Below are positions 18,284 to 39,475 of a stretch of DNA of 63,767 nt, piece by piece; position 1 is the first letter of the stretch, and each line of letters starts with the position of its first letter. This stretch comes from a virus (Duplodnaviria > Caudoviricetes). Below the pieces are notes generated by a model, which was given only the letters and a program-made list of their open reading frames with translations, made no database searches and was not told where the DNA came from. The position numbers and the translations under genes were made by a program. The stretch lies in the IMG/VR virus record IMGVR_UViG_3300046479_000008, positions 1 through 63,767 of that record. The stretch is one strand, 5' to 3'.

Positions 18284-19033
18284 TTACCTTCGAATAGAGA
18301 TCTCAAAGGAAGATCTAGGAAGGTCTATGACCCTACCGAACACCCATCCCTTTTCAACATACTCTTGGATCTGAGCCTCGGGGATAATGGAGGTTTTGAC
18401 CCCATTATTCATCCAACGACTCTTTCCCATTGTCTTAGCACGTTTTTCAATTGCTTCTGGGTGAATCTCTATACCCTTTCTGGCCTCAGACAAACGTCTC
18501 TTAGCTTGCTCAGACTTAGGTCTCCCTGAATGGGTTTTAGACATCTTCTCTTTGGTAATCTCAGAGTGTAATGTACCTACACCCCAAACCCCTTTACGAG
18601 CATCGGAAGCCGCTCTGCGTTGCTCATCTGTCCATTTCCTTCCAGGCTTACCCTTGTGACTCTCTGCTATTCTGAATTTAGTTTCATTGCTCAATCTACC
18701 CGGACCCTTAGATGATATTTCAATGTTGTATCCGATTTCCCGTTTCCAAGAATGAAATGTAAGGATTAGGCATTGTTCCCAACGATCACATTGGTCTTGA
18801 GGGCATAGAAGAAGAGATTCAAACTTAAAGGCCCTTGGACCATATTTGTCCCAAGAGGCCTGAAGATGTCTGGAATCCTTCCCACTACGTAGCCTTTCTA
18901 TATGAGACTTGCATCGTTGATAGATTCCCAGTTTGCCTTGAGCTTGACCAATGTAAACTTTACCATTGACTTGGTTTGTTATAATATAGATTCCAACCTC
19001 AGTTGGGAGATGCCTGATCAGGTCCCGCAGCAT
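18284..19033 (-). CDS. GIY-YIG homing endonuclease with NUMOD-type C-terminal repeats
   Basis: GIYIITNQVNGKVYIGQA, LQASWDKYG, GYN, HSEITKEKMS. Confidence 0.92.
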   Translation of the reverse strand: MLRDLIRHLPTEVGIYIITNQVNGKVYIGQAQGKLGIYQRCKSHIERLRSGKDSRHLQASWDKYGPRAFKFESLLLCPQDQCDRWEQCLILTFHSWKREIGYNIEISSKGPGRLSNETKFRIAESHKGKPGRKWTDEQRRAASDARKGVWGVGTLHSEITKEKMSKTHSGRPKSEQAKRRLSEARKGIEIHPEAIEKRAKTMGKSRWMNNGVKTSIIPEAQIQEYVEKGWVFGRVIDLPRSSFEISIRR

Positions 19034-19388
19034 TTACCTTTTCCTTAACGGGGAAGATCCTTCCCCTTACTTCTCCTTCAGAAGTAAAGAAATTGGCATT
19101 AGTGTCGATCTCTTCAAGGATCGCTGAGTAGACAGCCAGGTCCCGTAGAGAGTCCTGATGGCTCTCTCCCCGCTCGACAGACACAGCCCACCTAGTTAGC
19201 TTTACTACGGCCAACTCAAGGATGTGCCATCTCTGGAAGGCCTCATCGGAGTCCAACTTGACCCCGTTGGGGAACAAGGCTTGCATGACCCCACCCACAC
19301 GCTTGAAGTTGTCACCGTATACAGCATTGCGTTCGTTATATGTCTTGGCAGCTTCCGCTAGGATCGCTCCAGCTTTGATCTCAGTCAT
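18999..19388 (-). CDS. all-alpha nucleotide-pyrophosphohydrolase-like protein (DUF6378/Nmad1-like)
   Basis: ERNAVYGDNF...VKLTR...HQDSLRDLAVYSAIL; paralogous to the C-terminus of 24376..25437. Confidence 0.7.
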   Translation of the reverse strand: MTEIKAGAILAEAAKTYNERNAVYGDNFKRVGGVMQALFPNGVKLDSDEAFQRWHILELAVVKLTRWAVSVERGESHQDSLRDLAVYSAILEEIDTNANFFTSEGEVRGRIFPVKEKVNAAGPDQASPN

Positions 19389-19401
19389 GGTTCACCTTGT
19401 G

Positions 19402-20121
19402 TTAGGATACTGGTGTGAAGGATAGCACCTTGACAGCCGGAGGAGGCACCATACCATCCGCTTCGGCTTCTTCCACACCCGCTAGCATTGCACTATTTAG
19501 CTCATCAATTGCTTGCTTCTCTGTGAAAGGACTCTCTGAGTAAGCAATATAGATCTGATCATCCGAATTGTCAACTTCCATAACGAATGGATAGCCCAAG
19601 AGATCCTCTAGGATTGCCATGAAAGTGCTCTTCGCGCAGTCATCATCGAATAAGGCTAGAGTTGTAAACCCTTCTGGGACCTCATTGGGATCCTCATCGA
19701 CTAGCTCAAGCTCCTCTGGAGTCATGGCTCTAGGGCCAGCCCAAGCAAAACCATTCGCGGGATCTCCACTGATCACAAACTTACCCTGAGTTTGCATCTC
19801 CGCAAGCTTCTCTTGCACTTCATCGGCTATACCACGCCAGTCAAAGATATCAAAGTTGATGCTCAACTGGGTTTCCTTCACAGAGTAGCCAGATACAATG
19901 CCAAGGTCCTCGAAATCCTCACGCAAGCTAGGGCTATTGGCGGCCAAGAATACGGTGGAGGAGGCAACTTGAAACTGATCCCCACCCAAGGGTTTTCCAC
20001 CCAAGACCTTCACGGCTCTGGCGATCTCTTTCTTACACTGAGCCGGGTCGTTGTCTGGAAGGTAGATGGAGAAGGGTTTCCGCTTAGGAGCAGCAGTGAG
20101 GAGTTTGGAGGTTAGTCTCAT
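19402..20121 (-). CDS. leader-family protein (MRLTSKLLTAA)
   Basis: 239 aa, acidic. Confidence 0.75.
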   Translation of the reverse strand: MRLTSKLLTAAPKRKPFSIYLPDNDPAQCKKEIARAVKVLGGKPLGGDQFQVASSTVFLAANSPSLREDFEDLGIVSGYSVKETQLSINFDIFDWRGIADEVQEKLAEMQTQGKFVISGDPANGFAWAGPRAMTPEELELVDEDPNEVPEGFTTLALFDDDCAKSTFMAILEDLLGYPFVMEVDNSDDQIYIAYSESPFTEKQAIDELNSAMLAGVEEAEADGMVPPPAVKVLSFTPVS

Positions 20122-21089
20122 AGAGTCTTCTCAAATAGATATCGATCGCCCATCTCATCCACCTTCTTGAAGCCTATGCTGAGCAGGATGTCCCATAGGT
20201 AATCAAGAAGCTCATGTGTGTTCTCGAAGTCATAGAACTCTTCCTTGAAGACCAGAGAGGAGCAAATGAACCTTGCATCACTCTCCTTATACATAGTGAA
20301 TGTGGTAAGGGTTTCATCATTATAGCTGACGCAGAACCCATGGGAGGTTCCTGAGGTCTGTCTCTGAGAGACTTGGAATCCGGCCTCACGGAGCATATTG
20401 GTGGTCTTATACATAAGCTTACAGGTGGTGTCCCACGCCTGAGATTCAGATGTAGCATGCTTACGAAGCAGTTTGGCCGTGAACCGCTTAGAGGTCTTGG
20501 TGCCCTCACTGAGGGATCCCCAGATGATCTGTGCCATCATCCTGTAATCCCGCTCACCCAGGGCCTGGGAGATCTCCATCCCATACTCCCAATCGGGATC
20601 GTCATCCTTGCTCACCCCTAGGTCGATCAGACCTTCTTGGATAGCCCTGGTGGCAACATGCTCAAAGTCATCACCATGGATCAATGCCTCATAGACATCG
20701 TTCTCTGACTTACAAGAGCGGAACACCGGCTCGTCCAGGAGCATATCCGCCAGGAGCACATAGTCACTCTCCTTGAGGGACAACTTACTAGTTGGCTCAT
20801 GGAAGTTCCGGATGTTGTCCAAGGCTTCCAGGCAGAGGACCTCGTGATCATAAGGGCAATCACTCAAGTCATCACCATCCTCACCCATACCAGGGTGGTA
20901 GAAGGATCTAGGATCCTCCTCCCAAGCGGGGAGCGAATGGTTCATGACAATGTCTTTGAGCTTCTTCCAGCCCTGATCAGATACAGCGTCCCAGTTACCA
21001 AACTCTCGGCTCTGGACCTGTTCAAACAGATGCCTGATGCATCCCTCAAACATCTCCACCCATTCTTCTCTGGTATAGCGTCTTGGCAT
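20118..21089 (-). CDS. hypothetical protein with internal TAKLLRKHA motif
   Basis: Start moved to MPRRY behind GAGG; C-terminal module KRFTAKLLRKHA...LWDILLSIGF. Confidence 0.75.
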   Translation of the reverse strand: MPRRYTREEWVEMFEGCIRHLFEQVQSREFGNWDAVSDQGWKKLKDIVMNHSLPAWEEDPRSFYHPGMGEDGDDLSDCPYDHEVLCLEALDNIRNFHEPTSKLSLKESDYVLLADMLLDEPVFRSCKSENDVYEALIHGDDFEHVATRAIQEGLIDLGVSKDDDPDWEYGMEISQALGERDYRMMAQIIWGSLSEGTKTSKRFTAKLLRKHATSESQAWDTTCKLMYKTTNMLREAGFQVSQRQTSGTSHGFCVSYNDETLTTFTMYKESDARFICSSLVFKEEFYDFENTHELLDYLWDILLSIGFKKVDEMGDRYLFEKTL

Positions 21090-21116
21090 GTATGTCCTCA
21101 ATAGAGTACGTGAAGG

Positions 21117-22016
21117 TTAATCTACCAGGATCTTTCTCTTTCCACCCATCTCAGCACGGAGGGATGAACGAGCATTATTTCCTGGATCGACGTAAGGCAA
21201 GGGCTCAATTGGGGTTTCGGCTTCCTGAACGGGCTCAACTGTGGGTTCAGGGTCTGGTTCTTTGGTCATAGGTTGGGTTGGAACAGGTTCTGGGGCCGGT
21301 TTAGGCTCCTGGGGATGGCTGTGGGGTGACGTGACAAAGATCCCAATCTCAATGGATATGGCAAAGATCGCCAAGACCCAGAAGGCTACCCACCGGGGTG
21401 ACATGGCCAGGGTATCCCCGATGACCTCATACATGGTGCGCTTCTGAGTAGACAGATTGGTCTTGTCTTGGGTCTGCAGCGTGTTGATCCGCGTCTGGGA
21501 CTCCATACGCTTGCTCATGTAGTCCTGGATGCTCTGCTGGTCGGCCACGATGAGCTTCTGTAGCTCGATCTTCCTGGTGATCTTATCGTCATCTAAGGAG
21601 GCAATGGCCGATCTCTTGTCTGCTATGGCCTTCTGGGTGGTGCTGATAGACTCTTCGTATAGTTGCTGGTTCTTCCGCTCCAGATTGATGTCATCCACCT
21701 TAGACACCACCCCCACTCGGGCACCCACCTGATCCACCGTGGAGATCGCGTAGCCGAAGGAAGCTAGCAGCGAGTAGAGAGCCACGAACCCATAGGCCCC
21801 GTAGAGACCTACCATCCGCATCATCTTGCCCTTATGCTCACGGACCATGTTGGCGGCCACTAGGCAATAGAGCTTCAAGGCCTCAATGGCCAAGGAGCCT
21901 CCGATGAGTGCCACCTTCTCCAATGGGCTGGTGCCAAGCTCGATGGCTAGGTTGTAGGTAAAGAACGAGCTTACCAGTGCCAGGAACAAGAAGCTTATCC
22001 ACTGAAAGTATTCCAT
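21117..22016 (-). CDS. membrane protein with coiled coil
   Basis: Three N-terminal TM helices, coiled coil, fourth TM, Pro/Glu tail. Confidence 0.8.
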   Translation of the reverse strand: MEYFQWISFLFLALVSSFFTYNLAIELGTSPLEKVALIGGSLAIEALKLYCLVAANMVREHKGKMMRMVGLYGAYGFVALYSLLASFGYAISTVDQVGARVGVVSKVDDINLERKNQQLYEESISTTQKAIADKRSAIASLDDDKITRKIELQKLIVADQQSIQDYMSKRMESQTRINTLQTQDKTNLSTQKRTMYEVIGDTLAMSPRWVAFWVLAIFAISIEIGIFVTSPHSHPQEPKPAPEPVPTQPMTKEPDPEPTVEPVQEAETPIEPLPYVDPGNNARSSLRAEMGGKRKILVD

Positions 22017-22079
22017 TCGAGGTCCCTTAGATTCATTAGGCTACTGAGGCTTTCAATCACGAGTTGATCCAGGAGTCTT

Positions 22080-22496
22080 ATGCTCACCGCCAAACTACTC
22101 AAGAGGGCCGTCAAGAGACTAGGTAAGACTGTCATTCAGGAGTTGGGGCAAGAGCTTCTAGCATTCCTGCAAGAGACCTTCCCGGCTAACGAGTTCAAGC
22201 TACAAGTCTCTGATTGGGGTGCGCAGAAGGGTGATGCAGACATTTTGGTCAAATACGGCTGGCAGTTCATCAACATAGCCTCCTTTGGTAAGATCAAGGG
22301 CGCTGTGATCATGGGGCTTATGAATAAGGAGAAGCATTTCCAAGGCCTCAAATGCACACCAGAGGAAGTGGCTATGTTCTTAGAGATCCAGGAGGCCATT
22401 GGGGATTTCATAGTGACCAAAGGATTCCAACAGAAAAGCGTCAACGGGGATGACTTTCATACTTGGTATAAGCAACCAGAGGCTTCTCAATCCTAA
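22080..22496 (+). CDS. LTAKLLKRA-leader family protein
   Basis: AGGAG RBS; MLTAKLLKRAV; C-terminal IGDFIVTKGF. Confidence 0.85.
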   Translation: MLTAKLLKRAVKRLGKTVIQELGQELLAFLQETFPANEFKLQVSDWGAQKGDADILVKYGWQFINIASFGKIKGAVIMGLMNKEKHFQGLKCTPEEVAMFLEIQEAIGDFIVTKGFQQKSVNGDDFHTWYKQPEASQS

Positions 22497-22514
22497 TTTG
22501 ATTCCGGAGAATCC

Positions 22515-22823
22515 ATGTCCGCGCAATACTACACCTTCACTCAGACTGTCTACCTCCCCAATGGGATCACTATGGGCAACGGAGACTTCATGGCCTTCGA
22601 CGCAACATCCTTCGTAGCCCTAGTCTACCCTGGTATGGTTGATAAGCAGGTGTTGCGGTTCAACCTTGGTGAGATCAATGCAATGCTCGCTAAGGGGTTC
22701 ATTGTCTCCACTGCTGTAGTCCCTGCAGGGTTGCCCGGTGATCTCAACTTCGATGACTCCGCTGTGATCGTTGAGCCCATCGTTCGCCCTGTGGATCCCA
22801 ACGTTCCTGCCCCAGGGGCCTAA
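22515..22823 (+). CDS. hypothetical protein
   Basis: GGAG RBS, 102 aa, followed by a hairpin. Confidence 0.75.
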   Translation: MSAQYYTFTQTVYLPNGITMGNGDFMAFDATSFVALVYPGMVDKQVLRFNLGEINAMLAKGFIVSTAVVPAGLPGDLNFDDSAVIVEPIVRPVDPNVPAPGA

Positions 22824-22891
22824 TGATATGGATATGAATTCCCCTTTCCTTCAAAAGGGTTGATTTCACGTTTTGATTTCAGACACAAGTC

Positions 22892-22915
22892 AGGCCCCAT
22901 TGCTGGGGCCTTTCT
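22892..22915. terminator. hairpin between convergent genes
   Basis: AGGCCCCA-TTGC-TGGGGCCT followed by TTCTC. Confidence 0.7.
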
Positions 22916-22932
22916 CATGTAATGAAGGGAAG

Positions 22933-23547
22933 TTACTGAATGCGCTGGATGAACTTGAGGTCGTAGCCCAGGATGGCTTCGGTGTCCAGGATCAGGTAGT
23001 GATACTTGCGGCCCTCAGCGACCAGGAACGGGTTGGTGTGGCTCTCGGTGAGGACTTCCTGAGCGATAACCAACCCACCCTCGGTGACCAGGTGCTGCTT
23101 GACCAGCTCCACATTGGGCACATGGAAGCCCAGGTGAGAGAGCTTGCAGGGCGGCAGGGGCACCCCAGTAGCAGCGGCTCTGGCGGAGTGCCAGTCGGTG
23201 TTGGTCTGGGTGGGAGCGTCGTAAGTGAGCAGCTCGAACTCAACGCCCTTGGAGGTCATACCCGGCTTGACGTTGACGTAGCTGTAGGAGAAGTTCAGCA
23301 CTCCCTGGACCTGAGTCTGCTGCCCGAACACGGTGCCCTGAGCGACATTGCGATCAGTGGCCCAGTCGGAATGGCCCAGACCACCCATGAACAACTGCAC
23401 GTTGGGCAGGGCATCAGCGGAGACCAGGAAGGCGATCTGGTCGACCACCATGGGGAAGGGGAACTTGAGGGTCTTGGCGAACCCAGCGAGCTTCGCGAGG
23501 GCGGCCAGGATATCAGGATTGCTCTGGGGTTCAGTGATTGGTGACAT
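22933..23547 (-). CDS. VOC/glyoxalase-fold protein
   Basis: VDQIAF...EFELLTY...LSHLGFHV...LKFIQR pattern; start moved to MSPITE behind GGAG. Confidence 0.75.
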   Translation of the reverse strand: MSPITEPQSNPDILAALAKLAGFAKTLKFPFPMVVDQIAFLVSADALPNVQLFMGGLGHSDWATDRNVAQGTVFGQQTQVQGVLNFSYSYVNVKPGMTSKGVEFELLTYDAPTQTNTDWHSARAAATGVPLPPCKLSHLGFHVPNVELVKQHLVTEGGLVIAQEVLTESHTNPFLVAEGRKYHYLILDTEAILGYDLKFIQRIQ

Positions 23548-23576
23548 TGATTGTGCTCCGTAGAAGAGAGGATACC

Positions 23577-24347
23577 TTAGGCCCCGTAGGGCATGACGGT
23601 CTTGTTGAAGAACTCGTGACGGCTCTTGTGGCCGAGGATGAAGCCGATATACTCCGCCAGGGCATGCACGGAGGTCTCCTTCCCGCTGGGGAGAGAAGTG
23701 AGCTGATACTTGGTGGTCTGCTCCGGAGTCCAACCATTGGCCTCACTGACCGCATTGAGGATGTAGGTGCTCATCCCAGACTCATCGGGCTGCTTGTGCT
23801 CCGGATCCTTGGGGCCTTCGAGCTTGTTGGGACTGATGCCAAACACTGTCACACCCCAACCCTTGCGCCAGGATTCGTGACCAAGCTGCAGGGTGATCAT
23901 CTTCTGTGCAGCCTTGGACGAGTTGTAGAGACTGCTGTTCGTGAAGGGCACCTCAGAGGCATTGGAGATGATGTTCAGGATGGTGCCCTTGGAGGTCTTC
24001 AGGGAGGGCAGGAACCCCTGAGCGAGGAACAGGGTGGCCTTGGCATTCAAGGCATAGATCTGGTCAAACTCCTCGCTGGTGATGTCCTCGAAGGGGACGA
24101 TCTTGTTGACCCCAAGGTTGTTGACCAACACATCAACCTGTCCACCACAATGACCTAATACCTCCTGGATGGCATCATGGGTCTGGTCGATGTCCGAGAG
24201 GTCAGCGACAATGGTGGGGAACTCAATGCAGGGTTTGCAGTCAATGTTGAAGCACTCGAAGCCCTGGTGATGCAGCTCGCGCAGGATCTGTAGACCCAGA
24301 CCACTGGACCCGCCGGAGACTACCGCTACGCGTTTCTGTTTAATCAT
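23577..24347 (-). CDS. short-chain dehydrogenase/reductase (SDR)
   Basis: VSGGSSGLG, VDVLVNNLG, catalytic S, YNSSK, ISP. Confidence 0.93.
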   Translation of the reverse strand: MIKQKRVAVVSGGSSGLGLQILRELHHQGFECFNIDCKPCIEFPTIVADLSDIDQTHDAIQEVLGHCGGQVDVLVNNLGVNKIVPFEDITSEEFDQIYALNAKATLFLAQGFLPSLKTSKGTILNIISNASEVPFTNSSLYNSSKAAQKMITLQLGHESWRKGWGVTVFGISPNKLEGPKDPEHKQPDESGMSTYILNAVSEANGWTPEQTTKYQLTSLPSGKETSVHALAEYIGFILGHKSRHEFFNKTVMPYGA

Positions 24348-24375
24348 ATTACTCCTCGATGATGGATGTTCTAGG

Positions 24376-25437
24376 TTACCGGCTAGCCTTATCCCGGATC
24401 ACAAGCTCTTCCCATATCGCAGCATAGACAGCCGCATCATGGATTGAGTCTTGATGGTCCAGCTGAGAGATCCGGACAGGGGATAGGCCCTTGGGGTTGA
24501 GCGCACGACAGAGCTTGTGGACAATGATCCCAAGGGTGGCCATGATCGCATAGTCGGATTCAGTCTCAACCACTACCCCATCGGGGATCAACGCCTTGAG
24601 GACTTTGCCGGCTCTGACGTATGAGCTACCATATACCCGGCCACGCTCGGCGAACGTCTGCTGCATCTCCCCCAGGAGGGTGGACGCATTGGGCAGCTGC
24701 GGTTCATCAACCACAGGACGGGAACGCTCTAAGGCCTGGAACCCCTCACGGAGTTCCTCGGCCAGATTCCGCTGACCTTCAACGACCTGGCCTTCAAGCT
24801 TATTGGCCTGGATGTTCATGTCCCCAGATACCGTAAGGGTAATGGACTCCTGTTGACCATCGGCCTCCAGGGCATCCAAGGCCTCCTGGACCCAAGCAGG
24901 AGGAGCCGCAACGGGTTCCAGCAGAGCATCAAACCCCTCAACACCTTGGTCACCATTGTCCTCTACGTCCTTGTTGAGCGCCTCAAGGTATTCCTCACTA
25001 AGGGGATCCAGGGCCTGTAGACCCTCTTGCAGATCATCCTCCTCATCCCAGCCGATCTGGGACTGTGAGGCCAAGGAGGCATCCGTGAAGGAGAAGCTGG
25101 GATCCTCCTTGAGGATAGGTTCGATCTCTACCTGCACGATCTCCTCCTTGGGGCCTCTGAGCTTACGCCGGGTGGAGATCCCATAGGGATCCCGCTCATA
25201 ACCCTCGATGGGGATGATACGCCCATCACTGGGAGGACCATTGGGACGCACCGGGGGCACCTGAGGTACGAGGAGCTCAACGGGTTCAGGGGCAAAGCAC
25301 TCAGAGCGGATCTCCCCTGAGTTGAGTACAATCACCGGGCATACATCAGCTCGCTTCCCGTCGATGGTGATAGCAGTATGGTTCAAGCTCTTATCCACGA
25401 ACACCTTACCTGTACGATCAACGAACGTTCTCTCCAT
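24376..25437 (-). CDS. acidic N-terminal region fused to DUF6378/Nmad1-like domain
   Basis: ERGRVYGSSY...HKLCR...HQDSIHDAAVYAAIW. Confidence 0.75.
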   Translation of the reverse strand: MERTFVDRTGKVFVDKSLNHTAITIDGKRADVCPVIVLNSGEIRSECFAPEPVELLVPQVPPVRPNGPPSDGRIIPIEGYERDPYGISTRRKLRGPKEEIVQVEIEPILKEDPSFSFTDASLASQSQIGWDEEDDLQEGLQALDPLSEEYLEALNKDVEDNGDQGVEGFDALLEPVAAPPAWVQEALDALEADGQQESITLTVSGDMNIQANKLEGQVVEGQRNLAEELREGFQALERSRPVVDEPQLPNASTLLGEMQQTFAERGRVYGSSYVRAGKVLKALIPDGVVVETESDYAIMATLGIIVHKLCRALNPKGLSPVRISQLDHQDSIHDAAVYAAIWEELVIRDKASR

Positions 25438-25447
25438 CTATGACTCC

Positions 25448-28967: not shown

Positions 28968-29414
28968 CTACTTGGACTTACGCTTCAACAGGTCAGACTG
29001 ATGAACCCTATTGCTAGGCTTAGAGATCACAAGGAGCTTCAAACCCAAGCAGTCCATGTCCTCCAACGGGTAGCCCAGTCGCTCTAGGATCTTACGATAC
29101 ACAGGCATCTTGCTGGGGTTGTTCCCGCCTACCCATAGCTCACCATACTGCTTGACCCATCGATCAATCACAGGGATCGCATCGAGCATGTTACCCTTGA
29201 TCGCACCGGGGATCTTAGTCATCTGCTGCTCTGGTGAGGAGAAGTCCTGACCCATGGCCTGTAGGGCTAGATGATAGCAGTTCAACAACGGGAAGTGAGT
29301 GAGCACGAGATCATACCCACCAACCTCAGCCTCATCGACTACTGTGTAGCCATAGTGTTCGATGTTGTCCTTGATATGTTCAGGTAGCTTACTTCTCTTC
29401 AACAGGGGATGCAT
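28968..29414 (-). CDS. leader-family protein (MHPLLKRSK)
   Basis: Same start as 27064..27717; YRKILERLGY; ends SDLLKRKSK. Confidence 0.8.
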   Translation of the reverse strand: MHPLLKRSKLPEHIKDNIEHYGYTVVDEAEVGGYDLVLTHFPLLNCYHLALQAMGQDFSSPEQQMTKIPGAIKGNMLDAIPVIDRWVKQYGELWVGGNNPSKMPVYRKILERLGYPLEDMDCLGLKLLVISKPSNRVHQSDLLKRKSK

Positions 29415-29886
29415 GTAGGATCTTCTCCAACTCTAACTTAGTCTGGAGAAGGTTCTCGTATAGGATTCCGTAACCCCCTTGTGCTCGCCACTGAGGTATG
29501 TTCAACCTAGAGTCATCGATGAGAACATAACCCGGCTGTGCATAGGCTTGCTTGTCTACTGCGTATGGGCCCACATGGAACTCCATAGGCCCCCAGTGGT
29601 CGGTGATCCATTGACGCTTGTCCTCCTCAGCATAGGGTATGTGCCGACGACGGGGCAACGCTGTTAGGATAGCCACAGGGACATTGAGCGAACATACATA
29701 GCTCATGAGCTCATAGGCCTCAGGCATAGGTTCCAGTAGGGAGAACCAGTGGGGGAAACTGAGCACGGCCTCCCACAGGGTTGAGTCCTGGAGCGCACGA
29801 GGGTCTACCTGACCTACCTCGGCAACCATCCGATCGAAGTCAGCGAGCACTCCGTCCATGTCAAGAAATATTTTCTTAATGTTAAT
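29389..29886 (-). CDS. HAD 5'(3')-deoxyribonucleotidase, probable ATT start
   Basis: IFLDMDGVLADF, ILTA, K..W, LIDD; TAAGGAGG RBS precedes in-frame ATT codons. Confidence 0.88.
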   Translation of the reverse strand: MNIKKIFLDMDGVLADFDRMVAEVGQVDPRALQDSTLWEAVLSFPHWFSLLEPMPEAYELMSYVCSLNVPVAILTALPRRRHIPYAEEDKRQWITDHWGPMEFHVGPYAVDKQAYAQPGYVLIDDSRLNIPQWRAQGGYGILYENLLQTKLELEKILHASPVEEK

Positions 29887-30117: not shown

Positions 30118-30951
30118 TCATGCATTTGCCTTATAGTAATGCCGGAGCGTATGCAGGGTGTCAGAGTCCAGATCCTTCATGTTGTCCAGCGCCCAGCCCA
30201 GATACCCACGGGGGACCTCCGACCAGGGTTGTCCTTTGTGCTTGCCGAACTGACAGGTACGGAGCAGGATGGGCCGGTCGGCCCATAGCTGCAACGCCTC
30301 TAGCGTCGACAGCTTACCCTTGAACACTCCCTCGTTCTCAAGCTCCTGTAGCTCACGGATCAGTAGCTTGGTGGTCACTAGGGCGTCTGGCAGGGCACTA
30401 TGGGCTGGCATCCCTTCGGCCTCAGGGACCTCCAGGGGTAGATCATAGCGCAGGAATTGATTGGTGTAATGCTCCGAGACCCACAGGTGCTTTGCCAATC
30501 TCAGGGTGCACAACACTGGACGATCCATGGAGGGTAGGAACATGAAGTCGAAGGCAGCGTTATGGGCCGCGAAGGCATCCATAGGCCGATGAGCTAGCAT
30601 AGACGCAAAAGCATCCATGAACCGGGGTGCCCCCGCGACATGGGCGTCGGTGATGTGATGAATCGCTGAGGCATCGCTGGGGATATGTCTACCCGGATCC
30701 ACTAGGGTCTCATAGGTATCAATGATTCTCCCTTGGTGCATCCATACCCCGGCCAACTGACACACCTTATGCCCCTCTGAGATCTTCAACCCTGTGGTCT
30801 CGGTATCCACCACTAGGTAGATAGCATCCATAGGATTCATGGATTCGGGTTCCTTCACGCAATACTGGCCATACCATTTAACGAAATCATCGTTGAACCC
30901 CACCTGGCCCTTGAGGAGTGCTTCGGCTTTCCATGCTTGAAATTCTAACAT
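30118..30951 (-). CDS. DEDDh 3'-5' exonuclease (exonuclease X-like)
   Basis: VDTETTG, AHNAAFD, HSALPD; C-terminal FGKHKG..VP.GYL.W. Confidence 0.92.
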   Translation of the reverse strand: MLEFQAWKAEALLKGQVGFNDDFVKWYGQYCVKEPESMNPMDAIYLVVDTETTGLKISEGHKVCQLAGVWMHQGRIIDTYETLVDPGRHIPSDASAIHHITDAHVAGAPRFMDAFASMLAHRPMDAFAAHNAAFDFMFLPSMDRPVLCTLRLAKHLWVSEHYTNQFLRYDLPLEVPEAEGMPAHSALPDALVTTKLLIRELQELENEGVFKGKLSTLEALQLWADRPILLRTCQFGKHKGQPWSEVPRGYLGWALDNMKDLDSDTLHTLRHYYKANA

Positions 30952-31661: not shown

Positions 31662-31662
31662 A

Positions 31663-32112
31663 TCAATATGCTCCTGGTTGAACTTGGTAACATGCCAGTC
31701 CGGCACCGCGCCACATGGCGACCATCTTGTCGCGGTCTTCTAACACGAATAGAACGTCTTCGGGTTTGAAGTGGAAACGCTCCATGGCTAGCAGGAAGGC
31801 TTCCCATTTTACGATCGTGTCGGATCGAAAATCTTTTTTTGGTCTCATGAGCAGAGCTTCGCTCCCAAAGAACAATTCATGCTTAGTGAGCCACTCTTCG
31901 GTCTGGGGTCGCCACTGCTCATCACGACCAGTGACGTAGAGCACTAGATGTTCGGTTTCCATCATCCCACGGAGTAGGGCTTCCACCCCAGGGTAGATTG
32001 GATCATGAATACAATTGGAGTTGAACTCATCCCATTGCTTGCTCTTGGCGAAGTGCTCTCGGTGCTGAGCATCACAGAGGGTTCCATCTAGATCACATAT
32101 AATAATGCCCAT
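31663..32112 (-). CDS. HAD phosphatase (polynucleotide kinase 3'-phosphatase-like)
   Basis: CDLDGTL, VTGR, LLMR...DFRSDTIVK, EDR..MVAMWR..GL. Confidence 0.9.
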   Translation of the reverse strand: MGIIICDLDGTLCDAQHREHFAKSKQWDEFNSNCIHDPIYPGVEALLRGMMETEHLVLYVTGRDEQWRPQTEEWLTKHELFFGSEALLMRPKKDFRSDTIVKWEAFLLAMERFHFKPEDVLFVLEDRDKMVAMWRGAGLACYQVQPGAY

Positions 32113-32958: not shown

Positions 32959-32979
32959 TCGACGCTTAAACGACCAATT

Positions 32980-33002
32980 AGGCCCCCTCCTTGGGGCCTT
33001 TT
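32980..33002 (+). terminator. intrinsic terminator
   Basis: AGGCCCC-6nt-GGGGCCT followed by TTT. Confidence 0.75.
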
Positions 33003-33006
33003 ACGT

Positions 33007-34140: not shown

Positions 34141-34141
34141 A

Positions 34142-34435
34142 TCACCAATAGAAGTTCTGCCACTCAGGATACTCATTTTGGAGAACCACCAGAGACACTG
34201 GCTTGGCCCAGACCTGCTTGTAGCTGGGCTCTTCCACTTCAATCAGAACCTCAATCTCCTGATTGCAGATCTGGAATCCTTTGATCTCCCCGAATTCCCC
34301 GATGTAGAGATTTCCTCCCATGGTGTATACGGGGGCAATGACCTGCGCATAGATCTTGGGCGGGAATTCATCGAAGTCCACCATCACATCTAGGTTGAAG
34401 AAATGCACACGATTCGCGTTCACTTGTTCTCCCAT
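34142..34435 (-). CDS. hypothetical protein
   Basis: 97 aa, tiled. Confidence 0.55.
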   Translation of the reverse strand: MGEQVNANRVHFFNLDVMVDFDEFPPKIYAQVIAPVYTMGGNLYIGEFGEIKGFQICNQEIEVLIEVEEPSYKQVWAKPVSLVVLQNEYPEWQNFYW

Positions 34436-35166
34436 AAGGCCTTGTAACCTGCTGACACATCAATCTCAATTGCATCCAGACCAAGCATCCGCGCTGCGAG
34501 CAAGGTTGTACCAGAGCCGGCAAACGGGTCCAAGACCATACCCTTGTTGGCTGCCAATTGTAGACACCACAGGGGAAGCTCTAAGGGGAATGAAGCAGGA
34601 TGCTCCTTAGGCCCGTGAGTGGTAGGGTAGGGGATGAACCACACATTGCCCCGGCACCGCTTGTCGGCCTTGATTCCCTTGAACCGAGCGATGTTGCTCT
34701 TGTCCTTATAGGGAACCCCGATGGCCACACGATCCAGGTCCACTTTGTTCTTGGTCAGGTGGAAGATATGCTCGTGGGTGGAGTTGAGGTAGCTGGGAGA
34801 GTTCACGGTCTTGAAGTGACCCTGTGTGTCCTCACCAATGCTGATGCTCTTGACCCATATGATGTCATTCTGCACTTGCCAGCCAGCATGAAGGAAATTT
34901 CCAAGCAGCTCATAGACTCGCATGGGCTGAGATGGTTTGGAACCCACCTGTAGGAAGAGACTCCCGTAATCGCTTGTGGCTCTCAATAACCCCTTAGCTA
35001 CATCCCACAGGAACATCCTATATTCTTCATCTCTTAGGTTGTCGTCCCAGACGTCATACTTGACCCCAATGTTATAGGGTGGGGATGTGACTGTGGTCTG
35101 GATGGACCCCTGGGGAATCAATGCCAGTTGCTCTCGGACATCCCCTACCCTATAGTCAATGGTCAT
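34420..35166 (-). CDS. N4-C/N6-A DNA methyltransferase (beta class)
   Basis: TSPPY precedes HPASFP and VLDPFAGSGTT. Confidence 0.93.
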   Translation of the reverse strand: MTIDYRVGDVREQLALIPQGSIQTTVTSPPYNIGVKYDVWDDNLRDEEYRMFLWDVAKGLLRATSDYGSLFLQVGSKPSQPMRVYELLGNFLHAGWQVQNDIIWVKSISIGEDTQGHFKTVNSPSYLNSTHEHIFHLTKNKVDLDRVAIGVPYKDKSNIARFKGIKADKRCRGNVWFIPYPTTHGPKEHPASFPLELPLWCLQLAANKGMVLDPFAGSGTTLLAARMLGLDAIEIDVSAGYKALWENK

Positions 35167-35167
35167 G

Positions 35168-36031
35168 CTACTTCCTCTGCATCTCGGGGATGGCCTCGTG
35201 GGTCGTGTGCTCCCAAACCTCTTGGATCTGATCCTTGGTCAGGGGATCGGTGCGGTAGAATTGCAGGGGTTTCTTGGGGTCAGCGGTTTTTTCGAAGCCG
35301 TTGAATCCCATACCTTGATTAGGATCATAGACCCCAGCTTGCTTGACCGGGCAATCGTGGTAGTTCTCGAAGGAGCAGATCCCTTTCTGAGCACACTCAA
35401 CACGGAGTACGGTCTCGAATTCAGGGAAGATCTCCAGGACGGCATTGCGCATGCTACGGGCCATGAGCTGAATCTCCCTCTGGGCTCTGCAGCACAGGCG
35501 ATGGGACAGGAACTCACTGAGGCTGCGCAGGTTGATGGTCATGAGCAGGTTGGTGCAGTTGGCGTGCGGTAGGGTCTGACGGGCATCCTGAGTGGGAACA
35601 CCCATCTCGATGAGCTTGAAGTAGCCCTCGTATTCACTCTTGAGCAGGTCTTCGTAGAAGGCGATCTGCTCACTATACTGCTCCTGGTGGTCTTCCCATT
35701 CCAGAGGCAGGCAATACTGCATATCTGAGATCACCACGGTGCGCTGGCTCTGCACGGAGAAGCTACAGGTCCTTGTGCGGGTGGCCTGAGCCATCAGCGA
35801 TCTGGATACGTCCTGGATCAAGAAGGAGAAGTTCACGTGCTCCCAGGCACTCCGGATGGTCCCGAGGGAGTATTTGAGCTCGGTGGCCTTCTTCTCAGGA
35901 CTCCAGGCCTTGATCTCGTCGAACATCGAGGGGCTCATGGACAGCCGGGTCATCTTCGCCAGCAAGAGCATGTCGATAGCGAAGGGGGTGTGGTTGATCA
36001 GGGTGACTTTAGGGTGTTTGAATTCAGTCAT
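35168..36031 (-). CDS. divergent ThyX-family flavoprotein
   Basis: EHVNFSFLIQDVSR, RTRTCSFSVQSQR (RHR changed to RTR), QDARQTLP, NLRSL..F..HRLC..AQREI. Confidence 0.88.
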   Translation of the reverse strand: MTEFKHPKVTLINHTPFAIDMLLLAKMTRLSMSPSMFDEIKAWSPEKKATELKYSLGTIRSAWEHVNFSFLIQDVSRSLMAQATRTRTCSFSVQSQRTVVISDMQYCLPLEWEDHQEQYSEQIAFYEDLLKSEYEGYFKLIEMGVPTQDARQTLPHANCTNLLMTINLRSLSEFLSHRLCCRAQREIQLMARSMRNAVLEIFPEFETVLRVECAQKGICSFENYHDCPVKQAGVYDPNQGMGFNGFEKTADPKKPLQFYRTDPLTKDQIQEVWEHTTHEAIPEMQRK

Positions 36032-36381
36032 GGATTCTCCTTCTCTAGGGATACTGCCTCGTTCAATAGCTGAAGGCCGTGGCGCAGAGCGTCATGGGCC
36101 TTCTTTACTGGGCCTTCCGGAGGGAACCGTCCTTCGGCTTCAGCGTTCCGGCGAATCAGCTCCATGGCCGCATAGAGATCCAGGAATTCCTCCTTTAGGC
36201 TCAGGAATTCCCGTCCTGCTGCATCTGGCTGAGCCTGTTCTAGGCTATGGATACGCTGCTGCAGGGCATCCAAGACCTCCAGGTTCTCTCGGCCACAAGG
36301 GCCTGACCCCATCTTCTCCCGGATCGAGGGGGCAACGTCCAGCCAAGGGATATGTGTGGAGAGGGTTTCAGCTGTGTTCAT
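36028..36381 (-). CDS. hypothetical protein
   Basis: 117 aa, ATGA-coupled to the thyX-like gene. Confidence 0.65.
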   Translation of the reverse strand: MNTAETLSTHIPWLDVAPSIREKMGSGPCGRENLEVLDALQQRIHSLEQAQPDAAGREFLSLKEEFLDLYAAMELIRRNAEAEGRFPPEGPVKKAHDALRHGLQLLNEAVSLEKENP

Positions 36382-36383
36382 GG

Positions 36384-36593
36384 TTAACCCTTGATGGCCG
36401 ACCGGACTCTACGCAGTTCCTTGGCCAAACGGACCAGTCCCTTGGTGCTGCGGATCCCTCGGCCCTGTGCTAGGGCCTCCAGGTGCGTCCGGTCCTCCTT
36501 GTGGCGAAGGCCCCAAAGGTCTGGGGGGATGTTCAACATGGGAATACAGTTGGCAACAATGAGATTGCGGATACGGATGTTGTTGGGTCTCAT
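36384..36593 (-). CDS. small basic hypothetical protein
   Basis: 69 aa, AGGAG RBS. Confidence 0.6.
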   Translation of the reverse strand: MRPNNIRIRNLIVANCIPMLNIPPDLWGLRHKEDRTHLEALAQGRGIRSTKGLVRLAKELRRVRSAIKG

Positions 36594-36652
36594 GGGCTTT
36601 CTTCTCCTATTTTGTTAAAGGGTTGGAGCATATCCGAGGTTAAGGACATCAG

Positions 36653-37030
36653 ATGTTACTAAAGTTACTGCGTATTGCTTGCTCTGTGCTCAGAGAGGGC
36701 AGCAAGGTTGTCACCCGTAGCTCTGGGTGGCCTACAGCTAGGAAGCATCATTTGAAGGCTCAACCTTATTGTGCTGCCTGTGGGGGAACCACTCTGCTGC
36801 AGGTGCATCATATGTTGCCATTTCACCTTGATCCCCAGCTTGAATTGGATCAAACCAATCTAATCACTCTATGCATGGGAACCAAGGAGTGTCATCTGGT
36901 CATCGGTCATGGTGGTGATTTCCATCACTACAATCCTAATGTCCTGGGGGATGCCCAGACGGTGTTGAATGATCCAAGCAAGTTCGCTGCTGTCAAGGCC
37001 AATGCTGAGGCCACTAGGAAGCCATTATGA
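36653..37030 (+). CDS. small HNH endonuclease
   Basis: CAACG...VHH...NLITLC....CHLVIGH. Confidence 0.88.
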   Translation: MLLKLLRIACSVLREGSKVVTRSSGWPTARKHHLKAQPYCAACGGTTLLQVHHMLPFHLDPQLELDQTNLITLCMGTKECHLVIGHGGDFHHYNPNVLGDAQTVLNDPSKFAAVKANAEATRKPL

Positions 37031-37494
37031 ACGATAGAGATATGTTTCCAGAGATCCAAGATGGTGATCTAATTGCCTTCCAATGCCGAAAGGGATTGGG
37101 AGACTGGCTGATCCGTTGGTGGACCAAGAGCCCATGGACCCATGTGGGAGTAGCGTGTTGGTGGCGAGACACACTGATGATCGTGGAATCCTATCCGGGC
37201 TATGGGGTGCGTTGTCGTCCGCTGTCCCAGGACCTACAAGATGCTTACTGGATTCCCACCGGGCTGTCTTGGACTCCAAGGCTACATGAGATGGCCACTG
37301 ATCTGTTTGACACCCCGTATTCTTGGATCAACGATTGGCAAGCCGCATGGGGAGAAAAGCTGTTGGGACATCATATGCAATGTGCTCAATATGCCTCTTA
37401 CATCTTTACGCAAGCAGGACTCAAAGGAATGCCCTTGAGCCCCACACCGGGTAATGTTGTAGCTTGCTTCAAGGCCCAACCACAGAAGCTATGA
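37027..37494 (+). CDS. permuted papain-like amidase (YiiX/YaeF-like)
   Basis: DGDLIAF, SPWTHVG, PYS, QCAQY, PTPG. Confidence 0.8.
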   Translation: MNDRDMFPEIQDGDLIAFQCRKGLGDWLIRWWTKSPWTHVGVACWWRDTLMIVESYPGYGVRCRPLSQDLQDAYWIPTGLSWTPRLHEMATDLFDTPYSWINDWQAAWGEKLLGHHMQCAQYASYIFTQAGLKGMPLSPTPGNVVACFKAQPQKL

Positions 37495-37737
37495 GTAGTC
37501 GTAGACCTTCTGCATGAGCCAGATCTGCCAGCAGATCCAGAAGGCATATCCGAAGATCAGACACACACCGGGAATCCAGTGGAGACTCAGACCCAGGACA
37601 ATGGCTTCAATTCGAGCCAAATTGATAAGCTCCTCGGTCCAGACTTCTCTGTTCCAAATCTGCTTGTGCCGCAGGGCGGTCAGGGTGTCTGTGGACAGCA
37701 GGGTCTTGAAGTAGCTCTTGAGGTTCTGGAGAATCAT
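37489..37737 (-). CDS. small membrane protein
   Basis: Hydrophobic C-terminal half; ATGA-coupled. Confidence 0.6.
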   Translation of the reverse strand: MILQNLKSYFKTLLSTDTLTALRHKQIWNREVWTEELINLARIEAIVLGLSLHWIPGVCLIFGYAFWICWQIWLMQKVYDYS

Positions 37738-38729
37738 AGCCGATCCCTATTCTTGAGCATGGCCAGCTGACGGCCATATTGGTCCTTATGGTCAATGAAC
37801 CCGGCGACGATGCCAGCGTCCTCAACTACATCATGCATGAGCAGGTTGGGCTTCCAGGTGGCAAAGCGGCCCAAGGAATAGATGCTATAGAGTTCACTCA
37901 GGGCCATGATGAACCCTCTGCGAGCAGTCTCGTCAATGGGGACCAGCTTACCGAACCGTTGCTCCTTCATCTTGATGTCTCCGATCACGGCGTGCTCGAT
38001 ACCGAAGTTATCCAAGACGCACATGGCAGTCCGGGCCAGCCAACCCAAGCCAACCATATCCAAACCGGAACTGAAGTCATCCATACGAGGACGAGGCTCG
38101 GTCTGGAACTCAATGATCAACTGGTTGCCCGTTATTGAGCAGCGATAGAAGGATTCGTCCCCAGGGTAGTAGAGGGTCTGATAGACGTCAACCTCCGGCT
38201 CAAGCAGCTGCACCGTCACGGCCCAGATGCTCTTGTAGTTGAACTGCGGTGGCTCCGGCCAGCCCACCATCTTCATCATCACCGGCATAGGGATGGTGCT
38301 CACGGCAGGACACATAGCTCCTTGAGCGATGATCAGATCGTCTGCAGTCAAGGGGGAGTTATAGATGATCTCCACCCCCTCGGAGAGACGAGCCACGAAA
38401 TCCTTTGGGGCGATCCAACGGTCGGTGGTGTCTAGGTTCATGATGCTCCGACCACGCACAGTTCCGTTGGTCTTCAGGGAATACATATTCCCCAACCGCA
38501 GAGTCGGCTGTGTGATGATCTCTCCCTCGTAGTGAATCCCCTTCAGGACCTTCACCTTCTTGAACGGGATCCCTGTGATCTCTGAGATCTGTTCATCCCG
38601 GAATCGCAGCAGAGCCTCATGGTTATGTGGCAGAGAGGGTTGAGCCTCGTGGATGACTGGACGATGCTTGCGGAGCACATGGGCAGCAATCAAGCCAGCC
38701 ATACCCCCGCCATAGATATCAATGCTCAT
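37734..38729 (-). CDS. FAD/NAD(P)-binding oxidoreductase (UDP-galactopyranose-mutase/amine-oxidase-like fold)
   Basis: IYGGGMAGLIAA...IHEAQ; STIP; C-terminal YSLGRFATW. Confidence 0.85.
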   Translation of the reverse strand: MSIDIYGGGMAGLIAAHVLRKHRPVIHEAQPSLPHNHEALLRFRDEQISEITGIPFKKVKVLKGIHYEGEIITQPTLRLGNMYSLKTNGTVRGRSIMNLDTTDRWIAPKDFVARLSEGVEIIYNSPLTADDLIIAQGAMCPAVSTIPMPVMMKMVGWPEPPQFNYKSIWAVTVQLLEPEVDVYQTLYYPGDESFYRCSITGNQLIIEFQTEPRPRMDDFSSGLDMVGLGWLARTAMCVLDNFGIEHAVIGDIKMKEQRFGKLVPIDETARRGFIMALSELYSIYSLGRFATWKPNLLMHDVVEDAGIVAGFIDHKDQYGRQLAMLKNRDRL

Positions 38730-39475
38730 AGATCTCTCCCACTATCATATTCAGCTTCAGCTTCTGGTTCTGATTCCTCTAGGTTACGAGGTTTCATTAT
38801 CTCAGCCATTTGATAGTCATACCATTTCTCGGAGGTCATCAAGGCCCTGGAGAGAAGGTTCTGCAGGATGAACGCATCCACCGGCTTGACCCAGATGCCA
38901 TTGATTGTGTTGTCACCACAGAACGCTGGATGGTTTGGGAACAGGCTGTGATAGACCATCCCAGGAGTGCCCCTCTTGTAGTGACGCACCTTGCGGATCA
39001 TCTCCCAGTAGGGTTCAGAGTATTCAGGATCCGCATCCGGCAGTCCCTTGAGGAACCATTTGCTGTAGCTCTTTATGGTGCGACGGTATTCGAGCTTGTC
39101 CAAGTTGTGCTTGGGGAGATCAGAAACATCACGCCCGAGGAGCTCAGAAATCATGGCGAGATACCAGAGCACATCACCCATCTCCTCCATGATGTGATCC
39201 TTCTCCTCTTCGTTGAGATCAGCGGGATCCGTCTTGTCCATGTAACGCCAGAGTTTGGTGACTTCTTTGACCACTTCTCCGGCCTCTTCTCCCAACCCTA
39301 GGGTGAAGCACTGCAACACACCCTCGTGATTGGTGACATGTTCTGCAGCTTTATTCTGGAATTCTCGGAGATCTAGCTCCGGTTTATTGAGATCTGCGTA
39401 TTTTACCCACCGGCCACCATTGACTTCGAACAAATCTACGTTGCCGTTATTGAATTTAAGCTCATAACGCTTCAT
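38726..39475 (-). CDS. MazG-like NTP pyrophosphohydrolase with extra domains
   Basis: GLGEEAGEV...EEMGDVLWYL...NLDKL. Confidence 0.9.
   Translation of the reverse strand: MKRYELKFNNGNVDLFEVNGGRWVKYADLNKPELDLREFQNKAAEHVTNHEGVLQCFTLGLGEEAGEVVKEVTKLWRYMDKTDPADLNEEEKDHIMEEMGDVLWYLAMISELLGRDVSDLPKHNLDKLEYRRTIKSYSKWFLKGLPDADPEYSEPYWEMIRKVRHYKRGTPGMVYHSLFPNHPAFCGDNTINGIWVKPVDAFILQNLLSRALMTSEKWYDYQMAEIMKPRNLEESEPEAEAEYDSGRDL

Follow-up and report, generated by a model that had tools for sequence, protein, structure and literature searches.

We analysed the complete IMG/VR virus record IMGVR_UViG_3300046479_000008 (Duplodnaviria; Caudoviricetes), a stretch of 63,767 bases referred to here as the window. 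The record has a linear topology class and an estimated completeness of about 22%; the window is therefore only part of a giant phage whose genome would measure roughly 290 kb. Its genes lie nearly all on the minus strand, and among them, spread over about 20 kb (18999-38729) with at least ten unrelated genes interleaved, are genes for a flavin adenine dinucleotide (FAD) flavoprotein, a relative of the thymidylate synthase ThyX, a HAD phosphatase, two proteins with a DUF6378 domain, a short-chain dehydrogenase/reductase (SDR) and a protein of the VOC (glyoxalase) fold. A first-pass annotation, made from the letters of the sequence, had named these genes (every one on the minus strand) as a candidate pathway for an unusual pyrimidine, and all the genes it listed were recovered in place by Pfam, PHROG and structure searches. 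Its grouping of them was meaningful as well: other phages carry these families in a fixed order, so the association is far beyond chance. By sequence comparison, the set appears to be a scattered copy of a phage-restricted nucleotide cassette, with the flavoprotein, the ThyX-like enzyme, the HAD phosphatase and DUF6378 as its core and with SDR and VOC added. In a megablast search of 19000-39475 against 50,697 phage records, nothing matched but two short stretches the size of a tRNA; the window phage thus has no close sequenced relative.

Genes of the cassette and their layout

Followed along the minus strand, the region opens with an HD hydrolase, a MazG protein and the flavoprotein. Three small open reading frames (ORFs) lead to the ThyX-like gene, which is followed by a DNA methylase, an ATP-grasp protein and further small ORFs, the HAD phosphatase, YqeY, an exonuclease and an NT5C-type nucleotidase. 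Three tRNAs and a 2H phosphoesterase come next, then one DUF6378 gene (copy b), SDR and VOC, about 3.5 kb of unassigned genes (two of them on the plus strand), the second DUF6378 gene (copy a) and a GIY-YIG endonuclease. The homing endonuclease, the three tRNAs, the 2H phosphoesterase, YqeY, the ATP-grasp protein and the DNA methylase appear unrelated to the cassette.

The first core gene (37734..38729, minus strand) encodes the flavoprotein, with a GxGxxG motif at residues 7-12 and a match to phrog_4828 (3e-67); neither Pfam nor a PDB sequence search returned anything for it. Its AlphaFold2 model (predicted local distance difference test, pLDDT, 85) is that of a two-domain FAD enzyme. The best-scoring solved fold in a Foldseek search of the PDB is UDP-galactopyranose mutase (PDB code 3hdq, E 5.9e-10), a reduced-flavin enzyme that acts on sugars; the resemblance stops at a template-modelling (TM) score of only 0.52, 12% identity and no match to Pfam GLF. 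As L-amino-acid oxidase, tetracycline destructase, protoporphyrinogen oxidase and LSD2 score on par with it, "mutase-like" is a lead and not a classification. The family comprises 1,203 clusters at 50% identity and is essentially phage-only: one genome each of 185,579 prokaryote species yielded nine loci, all on contigs of metagenome-assembled genomes of at most 59 kb. No Pfam domain, and no name beyond "hypothetical protein", was attached to 120 homologues among those listed. One metagenomic relative of 506 amino acids (P0152) is fused to an N-terminal YfbR-like HD 5'-deoxynucleotidase, a fusion that ties the flavoprotein family to deoxynucleotide metabolism.

Immediately upstream of the flavoprotein stands a gene for a MazG-type nucleoside triphosphate (NTP) pyrophosphohydrolase (38726..39475, minus strand; Pfam MazG 8.7e-09, nothing useful in a PDB sequence search), whose stop overlaps the flavoprotein start by 4 nucleotides. 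Just upstream of MazG is an HD-type phosphohydrolase (39484..40134, minus strand), peripheral to the cassette, which matches phrog_19425 "phosphohydrolase" (1.9e-30) and found no match in Pfam or in a PDB sequence search; it is not similar to the HD domain of P0152 (E 1.7).

The second core gene (35168..36031, minus strand) encodes the ThyX-like flavin enzyme, which matches Pfam Thy1 (PF02511) at 4.1e-38 with 131.5 bits against a cut-off of 24.8, and with 132.5 bits in a second scoring. The third (31663..32112, minus strand) is a HAD phosphatase of PNKP type (HAD_PNKP 6.4e-27; cassette HAD profile 1.2e-62), 37% identical to the N-terminus of gp74 of Pbunavirus LS1. Two HAD phosphatases had been predicted for the region and both are present, the second being an NT5C-type 5'(3')-deoxyribonucleotidase of the HAD superfamily (29389..29859, minus strand; NT5C 1.8e-06), a peripheral gene of the nucleotide pool; the two proteins are unrelated in sequence.

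DUF6378, the fourth core family, is duplicated in the window. Copy a (18999..19388, minus strand; phrog_4889 2.9e-19) is a stand-alone domain, overlapped by the GIY-YIG homing endonuclease gene, and is 48-53% identical to the C-termini of gp48 of Xanthomonas phage Carpasina and gp67 of Escherichia phage WFC. Copy b (24376..25437, minus strand) is a protein of 353 amino acids whose N-terminal part is acidic and whose C-terminal domain is DUF6378 (phrog_4889 2.1e-11, residues 253-346; cassette DUF6378 profile 4.2e-39); it matches the same gp48 and gp67 by tblastn and lies directly upstream of SDR and VOC. The two had been described as paralogous ER..YG..HQDS..D..VY domains, and paralogous they are (36% identity over 96 amino acids, E 3e-16), both matching DUF6378 and the C-terminus of phrog_4889. 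Tyr-Gly, Lys..Arg and His-x-Asp-Ser..Asp..Tyr are invariant in the family, and the AlphaFold2 model of copy a is a four-helix unit (pLDDT 84).

The further description of these domains as pyrophosphohydrolase-like found no support. At a Pfam threshold of E <= 5, six of eight DUF6378 members matched DUF6378 itself, the other hits being single chance-level matches to ApbA_C (0.027) and INCENP_N (0.2), and no MazG-type family appeared. A sequence search of the PDB gave nothing useful and a profile search nothing below E 0.13, and Foldseek against the PDB gave no match at E <= 0.001 and no pyrophosphohydrolase in the top 50; small helical folds are hard to match, and a distant relation may escape such searches. 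A fold search of BFVD returned only the HAD-DUF6378 fusions of Kyle, EC150 and MTx, with "Nucleotide modification associated domain 1" (E 1.2) and "SaV-like" (E 2.6) among the non-significant rows. DUF6378 thus has no detectable sequence or fold relation to MazG-type or other NTP pyrophosphohydrolases, and a literature search on it turned up no gene assignment.

The two accessory genes are adjacent. SDR (23577..24347, minus strand) has the adh_short domain (5.9e-32) and, in its translation, the glycine-rich NAD(P) and YxxxK motifs expected of the enzyme that had been predicted; it is 36-38% identical over about 250 amino acids to Carpasina gp47 and WFC gp66. The VOC protein (22933..23547, minus strand) had no Pfam, PHROG or PDB sequence match, and the fold ascribed to it was borne out by structure: its ESM Atlas model gave TM scores of 0.62-0.68 to nine Glyoxalase-family (Glyoxalase_4/VOC) clusters. 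It is 34-37% identical to Carpasina gp46 and WFC gp65, and its start is likely at 23547 (204 amino acids) rather than at 23733.

The window also holds a DnaQ-like 3'-5' exonuclease (30118..30951, minus strand; RNase_T 7.3e-19; cassette exonuclease profile 6.4e-57). It is a homologue of the exonuclease that trails the cassette elsewhere and matches the exonucleases of Carpasina, LS1 and VA-RY-3 by tblastn. A local profile for DnaE found no match in the 63.8-kb window at E <= 0.001, and the core genes of the window are not contiguous directly upstream of exonuclease and DnaE as they are in the Pbunavirus type.

Recurrence of the cassette across phages

The locus of Carpasina reads flavoprotein (gp50), ThyX (gp49), a HAD-DUF6378 fusion (gp48, annotated as "polynucleotide kinase/phosphorylase"), a FabG-like SDR (gp47), gp46, a DnaQ-like exonuclease and a DnaE-type polymerase. 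WFC, a Wifcevirus, has the same order in gp70-gp65. Pbunavirus LS1 has the flavoprotein, ThyX and the HAD-DUF6378 fusion followed by exonuclease and polymerase, and is without SDR or VOC; the core is also present in Rhizobium phage RHph_Y65 and a Vibrio podovirus. The set forms one contiguous stretch beside the exonuclease and DnaE in Carpasinavirus, Wifcevirus and Pbunavirus. When the window proteins were compared with these loci by tblastn, the flavoprotein, ThyX, both DUF6378 copies, the HAD phosphatase, SDR, VOC and the exonuclease all matched, at 28-53% identity.

Across the phage records, tblastn placed the flavoprotein in 362 and ThyX in 641, with identical counts for both in Pseudomonas (292) and Escherichia (27) phages, and the two genes were adjacent at every locus inspected. 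A profile-guided scan of IMG/VR found 557 stretches that encode a flavoprotein relative. For co-occurrence we used the best 80 of these loci, not dereplicated and with 65 distinct ThyX sequences among them, which were searched at E <= 1e-5 with small local profiles built from one to seven sequences. The ThyX clade accompanies the flavoprotein in 78 of the 80, the two misses being loci of 2,285 and 1,974 bases. Where at least 5 kb was available downstream of ThyX (57 loci), the HAD phosphatase was found in 53, DUF6378 in 53, the exonuclease in 55 and DnaE in all 57, and the order ThyX, HAD, DUF6378, exonuclease, DnaE on one strand held in 50 of the 50 loci having all five. The co-occurrence across phage genomes that the first-pass annotation had put forward as a test is therefore seen for the core.

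The accessory genes fared differently under the same test. They recur with the cassette, as had been expected, but SDR (20 of the 57 loci) and VOC (13 of 57, each time with an SDR) form an optional pair. Among isolates, VOC relatives occur in 55 records (27 from Escherichia, 9 from Serratia, 6 from Xanthomonas, 4 from Microbacterium, 3 from Pantoea, and others; none from Pseudomonas). The best SDR matches fall in the same genera, and nearly all SDR and VOC matches come from genera in which the flavoprotein occurs too. What fills the variable slot in related loci is mostly Dda-type helicases and split DnaE pieces rather than tailoring enzymes, apart from one methyltransferase and a Pyr_excise-like gene, neither of which is in the window. 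The latter, an ORF of about 165 amino acids, was noted in 31 of the 80 loci (for example L055:6350-6850 and L059:10984-11541), mostly between ThyX and HAD; it matches Pyr_excise, the family of T4 endonuclease V-type pyrimidine-dimer DNA glycosylases, at 1e-5 to 1e-6, and was likewise absent from the isolate loci examined. In some variants of the cassette, its product could be the enzyme that acts on DNA.

MazG is not part of this recurring set. That it is coupled to the flavoprotein, as had been claimed, fits the 4-nucleotide overlap, which points to translational coupling; a place in a conserved pathway was rejected on its absence, with a profile built from one sequence, from all 80 related loci, including the 57 with at least 5 kb of flank. 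The MazG arrangement thus appears specific to the window phage.

Against this background the window is a variant of its own. Carpasinavirus, Wifcevirus and MyoSmar-like phages share all six families with it, at 31-53% identity to the window proteins, and the sub-order DUF6378-SDR-VOC is preserved in the window as in Carpasina and WFC; the block that is contiguous there is dispersed here. Compared with Pbunavirus, with which it shares the flavoprotein (36% identity), the ThyX-like enzyme (34%), HAD and DUF6378, the window has its genes dispersed, carries DUF6378 twice, couples MazG to the flavoprotein and gave no DnaE match, whereas Pbunaviruses are without SDR and VOC (the 55 VOC records include none from a Pseudomonas phage) and keep the genes beside exonuclease and DnaE. 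HAD and DUF6378 are separate genes in the window, as in 50 of 50 IMG/VR loci, and are fused in the isolates Pbunavirus, Carpasina and WFC. What the window adds is that the cassette also resides in a giant phage, detached from DnaE, that its DUF6378 domain can be duplicated, and that a pair of MazG and HD hydrolase can be coupled to the flavoprotein. With 362 isolate records, 557 IMG/VR stretches and 1203 protein clusters, the cassette spans hundreds of phage lineages and offers a concrete candidate gene set for the base chemistry of Pbunaviruses.

The ThyX-like active site and a candidate base modification

The ThyX homologue of the window had been described as altered in its active site, and alignment with Thermotoga maritima ThyX (PDB code 1o26 and others) and five canonical phage enzymes (Carmen17, phiC31, Campylobacter F361, HF2 and CPQ4) bears this out. 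In T. maritima numbering, it keeps Gln75, Arg78, Arg80, Ser83, Ser88, Arg90, Arg147 and Arg174, and replaces His53 by Ile (Ile59), His79 by Thr and Tyr91 by Thr. The motif thus reads R-T-R-x-x-S-x-x-x-x-S-x-R-T in place of RHR...SxRY. A census of 65 distinct cassette ThyX proteins shows that the changes belong to the clade: the His53 position holds Ile in 64 and Val in 1; the Tyr91 position Thr in 40, Val in 16, Met in 5, Ala in 2, Leu in 1 and Gly in 1, with Tyr in none; the His79 position Thr in 52, His in 9, Asn in 3 and Ser in 1; and the Ser88 position Ser in 48, Ala in 9 and Thr in 8. Gln75, Arg78, Arg80 and Arg90 are invariant, and Arg147 and Arg174 are each present in 64 of 65; these are residues that we take to bind deoxyuridine monophosphate (dUMP) and FAD. 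His79, Ser88 and Tyr91 are present in all five canonical phage enzymes. The cassette enzyme therefore resembles canonical ThyX in its Thy1 fold and its presumed dUMP- and FAD-binding arginines, and differs in the loss of His53, His79 and Tyr91, in a C-terminal cysteine extension and in its near-obligate flavoprotein neighbour.

This extension (35168-35530, minus strand) carries four conserved cysteines, one in an R-L-C stretch after Arg174 and three in the tail. It is missing from canonical ThyX and is common to the window, Carpasina, Pbunavirus LS1, WFC, mycobacteriophage Gumball and 17 of the 65 IMG/VR relatives; it may be a metal or iron-sulfur site. Gumball gp70 (L014) has the extension together with R-Q-R for RHR and the loss of His53 and Tyr91. 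A prediction of the complex between the ThyX-like enzyme and the flavoprotein gave a score of 0.00 against a mark of 0.32, which speaks neither for nor against binding.

The roles described for the replaced residues bear directly on the chemistry. Tyr91 and Ser88 are termed strictly conserved and critical in ThyX, mutation of Tyr91 slows flavin oxidation about 1000-fold, and His53 is described as stacking on the pterin of the folate (PMC11940539). ThyX is also reported to take an aldehyde, formaldehyde, directly through a flavin N5 carbinolamine (PMC8316439), which makes a carbon donor other than folate chemically plausible.

A possible product of such chemistry comes from Pbunaviruses (PB1-like phages such as F8, 14-1 and LS1), which are among the phages most used in Pseudomonas therapy and share with the window both the core and the same ThyX residue changes. 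Their DNA hypermodification was reported only recently. The DNA of F8 resists enzymes with TG in their site, and in F8 and 14-1 about a quarter of the thymidines are described as replaced by thymidine derivatives with masses of 362 and 390 Da, which were interpreted as a tetrose sugar-alcohol and as an aldopentose derivative (Yee et al. 2025, bioRxiv 10.1101/2025.03.31.646159). The same report describes Pbunaviruses as without known modification genes and the base as having no genes assigned, and our literature search found no paper that assigns genes to this base or links a cassette gene to it. The cassette is a candidate because it is the nucleotide-enzyme set common to Pbunaviruses and the window; by elimination and altered chemistry it would be the best available candidate, although unproven. 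The first-pass annotation had proposed a pyrimidine with a sugar-derived side chain at C5: this is partly supported, with an experimental parallel in F8 and 14-1, which carry the core.

On these grounds we propose that the cassette converts dUMP to a C5-substituted thymidine-type nucleotide, which would end as a hypermodified thymine with a hydroxylated, sugar-like side chain in the phage DNA, a reading to which we assign a probability of about one half. The dUMP would be supplied by the phage dUTPase and dCMP deaminase. The ThyX-like enzyme, predicted still to bind dUMP and FAD with no canonical hold on folate, would form the new bond at C5, with the flavoprotein as its partner that supplies or processes a non-folate carbon unit or has a redox role. 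The HAD phosphatase and DUF6378 would act on a phosphorylated intermediate or on competing thymidine monophosphate (dTMP), SDR and VOC would reduce or isomerise the side chain only in those phages that carry them, and MazG, the HD hydrolase and NT5C would tune the nucleotide pools. All of these catalytic assignments, and the step from cassette to base, are our own deductions from sequence. If the proposal holds, a ThyX-like enzyme with a non-folate carbon donor would be new flavin enzymology, and the pathway would be a new way of making modified DNA, of a kind that evades restriction enzymes and that END nucleases sense.

Several observations weigh against this proposal. Three quarters of the genome of the window phage are missing (the window being only about 22% of it), and our literature search found no genetic or biochemical experiment that links a cassette gene to the Pbunavirus base. 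The modification there is described in a TG context (bioRxiv 10.1101/2025.03.31.646159), which implies that some step reads the DNA sequence, and a DNA-recognition domain is not evident in any cassette protein. The adducts of F8 and 14-1 differ though Pbunavirus records share the core. The window ThyX retains Ser88 and an otherwise canonical-looking "SVQSQR" stretch. Dispersal of the genes over 20 kb, among unrelated genes and with no DnaE in the window, gives no sign of co-regulation. The cassette sits, moreover, in the replication module, where a plain dTMP synthase would be expected, and five of five complete carrier genomes have no ThyA- or ThyX-type gene other than the ThyX-like one, so that it could simply make dTMP.

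Ordinary thymidylate supply is accordingly a possible alternative, to which we give clearly less credence: a divergent but genuine dTMP synthase, a flavoprotein serving as its reductase or helper, HAD and DUF6378 in housekeeping, and SDR and VOC as unrelated travellers. The place beside exonuclease and DnaE in 50 of 50 ordered loci and the lack of a second synthase in the carriers speak for it, as do a Thy1 score of 131 bits, the retention of all the presumed dUMP- and FAD-binding arginines, and the roughly three quarters of Pbunavirus thymidines that are described as canonical (bioRxiv 10.1101/2025.03.31.646159). It is harder to square with an enzyme clade in which His53 is replaced in 65 of 65 members and Tyr91, whose mutation is reported to cost about three orders of magnitude in flavin oxidation (PMC11940539), is kept in none. 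Nor does it explain a near-obligate flavoprotein (78 of 80 loci), since canonical ThyX is reduced directly by NADPH (PMC11940539) and needs no such partner, or the variable additions of tailoring type, namely SDR with VOC, a methyltransferase and a glycosylase-like gene. Even so, plain dTMP synthesis would mean a large ThyX subfamily working without residues held essential.

A bolder form of the hypermodification proposal, which we consider unlikely, has the ThyX-like enzyme exchange folate for a sugar and join an aldose to C5 of dUMP through flavin N5 chemistry. ThyX with formaldehyde and UDP-galactopyranose mutase, in which the flavin N5 forms an adduct with galactose, provide the analogy. 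An aldose or its phosphate would react through its aldehyde carbon with the reduced flavin N5, as a carbinolamine or iminium; this carbon would be passed to C5 of dUMP and then reduced, so that the product is a 5-(polyhydroxyalkyl)-dUMP linked through carbon. Delivery or opening of the sugar would fall to the mutase-like flavoprotein and removal of a terminal phosphate to the HAD phosphatase, and SDR and VOC would reduce or epimerise the chain. The arithmetic is compatible: replacing H5 of deoxyuridine (dU, 228) by a 1-deoxypentitol-1-yl group (C5H11O4) gives 362 Da, the reported mass of the F8 nucleoside, and 5-(1-deoxypentitol-1-yl)-dU has the same formula as "thymidine plus a tetrose". Were this so, it would be a new carbon-carbon bond-forming glycoalkylation of a nucleotide and would explain pentyl-uracils of the SP-15 type.

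A product outside DNA is somewhat less likely again: the cassette would make or destroy a nucleotide-derived small molecule, for example against host defence signalling or for the modification of tRNA or other RNA. The region does contain three tRNAs, a 2H phosphoesterase with a weak Acb1-like match (0.0014), the PNKP-type HAD and a Thg1-like enzyme, and a PDB search with the window ThyX found PolB (PDB code 4p5a, E 1.8e-4), a ThyX homologue that methylates a nucleotide in an antibiotic pathway. Elsewhere, however, the cassette is tied to DnaE and exonuclease and not to RNA genes, so the RNA genes of the window are neighbours by insertion; the 5'-deoxynucleotidase fused to one flavoprotein relative also points away from RNA, and the unusual base of Pbunaviruses is reported in the DNA itself (bioRxiv 10.1101/2025.03.31.646159). 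That unrelated auxiliary genes of a giant phage just happen to lie near one another, with no common pathway, is very improbable, since for all the 20 kb and the unrelated genes that separate the members in the window, their fixed order and co-occurrence extend across hundreds of phage lineages, with identities of 28-53% to the window proteins that argue against one recent clone.

The proposed hypermodification can also be set beside known systems. The route through 5-hydroxymethyldeoxyuridine (5-hmdU) is described as using a ThyA-type dUMP hydroxymethylase, a 5-hmdU DNA kinase, aGPT-Pplase transferases and tailoring enzymes (Lee et al. 2018, 2021; PMC5889632, PMC8989533). It shares with the cassette a thymidylate-synthase relative acting at the nucleotide stage, variable tailoring and partial replacement of T; the difference is that its synthase is of ThyA type and that of the window of ThyX type. 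ThyA (PF00303) had no match in the window at E <= 0.1, which, with about 22% of the genome at hand, does not show its absence from the whole phage. The Pfam scan, which covered 70 window ORFs with small ORFs outside it, found no P-loop DNA kinase, aGPT-Pplase, pyridoxal phosphate or radical S-adenosylmethionine enzyme, the kinase and aGPT-Pplase families not having been searched by name. For the Carpasinavirus, Wifcevirus and MyoSmar-like phages, a literature search found no DNA chemistry; the BASEL paper (PMC11990801) contains neither "thymidylate" nor "hypermodif". The comparison with Bacillus phage SP-15, drawn already in the first-pass annotation, is chemical only. That phage reportedly contains 5-(4',5'-dihydroxypentyl)uracil, the subject, by its title, of a 1978 work of Walker and Mandel cited in PMC8989533, and the likeness would lie in a carbon side chain on C5 of uracil that is polyhydroxylated and arises at the nucleotide stage.

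Other genes of the window

The dUTPase, dCMP deaminase and NUDIX genes that had been listed alongside the pathway were all found by Pfam or family matches. The dUTPase (15486..15959, minus strand; Pfam dUTPase 1.3e-26) and the dCMP deaminase domain (56873..57199, minus strand; PF00383 1.7e-15 in a family search, in an open frame of 152 amino acids) are sources of dUMP and peripheral to the cassette; NUDIX, from the Pfam scan, lies at 50223-50666 (minus strand). By Pfam, the replication, repair and nucleotide region further includes RNase HII, a split NAD-dependent ligase, SbcCD-like proteins and a RecA-like protein, and the scan also found an SNF2 helicase, ClpP, NAD synthase, a Thg1-like enzyme and SmpB.

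Directly downstream of the ThyX-like gene, at 33271-35166 (minus strand), are an ATP-grasp protein of the R2K clade (R2K_3, 1.5e-21) and an N6/N4 DNA methyltransferase (2.9e-38), and the methylase starts 1 nucleotide past the ThyX-like stop. The NAD-dependent DNA ligase is split over 12382-15553 (minus strand), with the adenylation and OB domains at 14201-15553 and the zinc-finger/HhH/BRCT part at 12382-13311; an unassigned ORF of 294 amino acids (13315-14199) sits between the two pieces. A phage-encoded SmpB homologue lies at 60397-60816 (minus strand; Pfam SmpB 1.7e-21), and ARAGORN found no tmRNA in the window. The same program placed a tRNA of undetermined identity at 26786-26861 (minus strand), with a two-base "anticodon (tt)", adjoining tRNA-Gly(tcc) and near tRNA-Thr(tgt); DNA matches of the region to other giant phages (Tunturi_5, Xoo-sp13) are limited to the tRNA-Gly stretch. 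NAD synthase, the Thg1-like tRNA-His guanylyltransferase and a cytidylyltransferase-like protein are encoded at 6758-8403 and 61432-61923 (both minus strand). Taken with the tRNAs, the 2H phosphoesterase (25448) and the PNKP-type HAD, these genes suggest a repertoire for RNA repair and NAD salvage.

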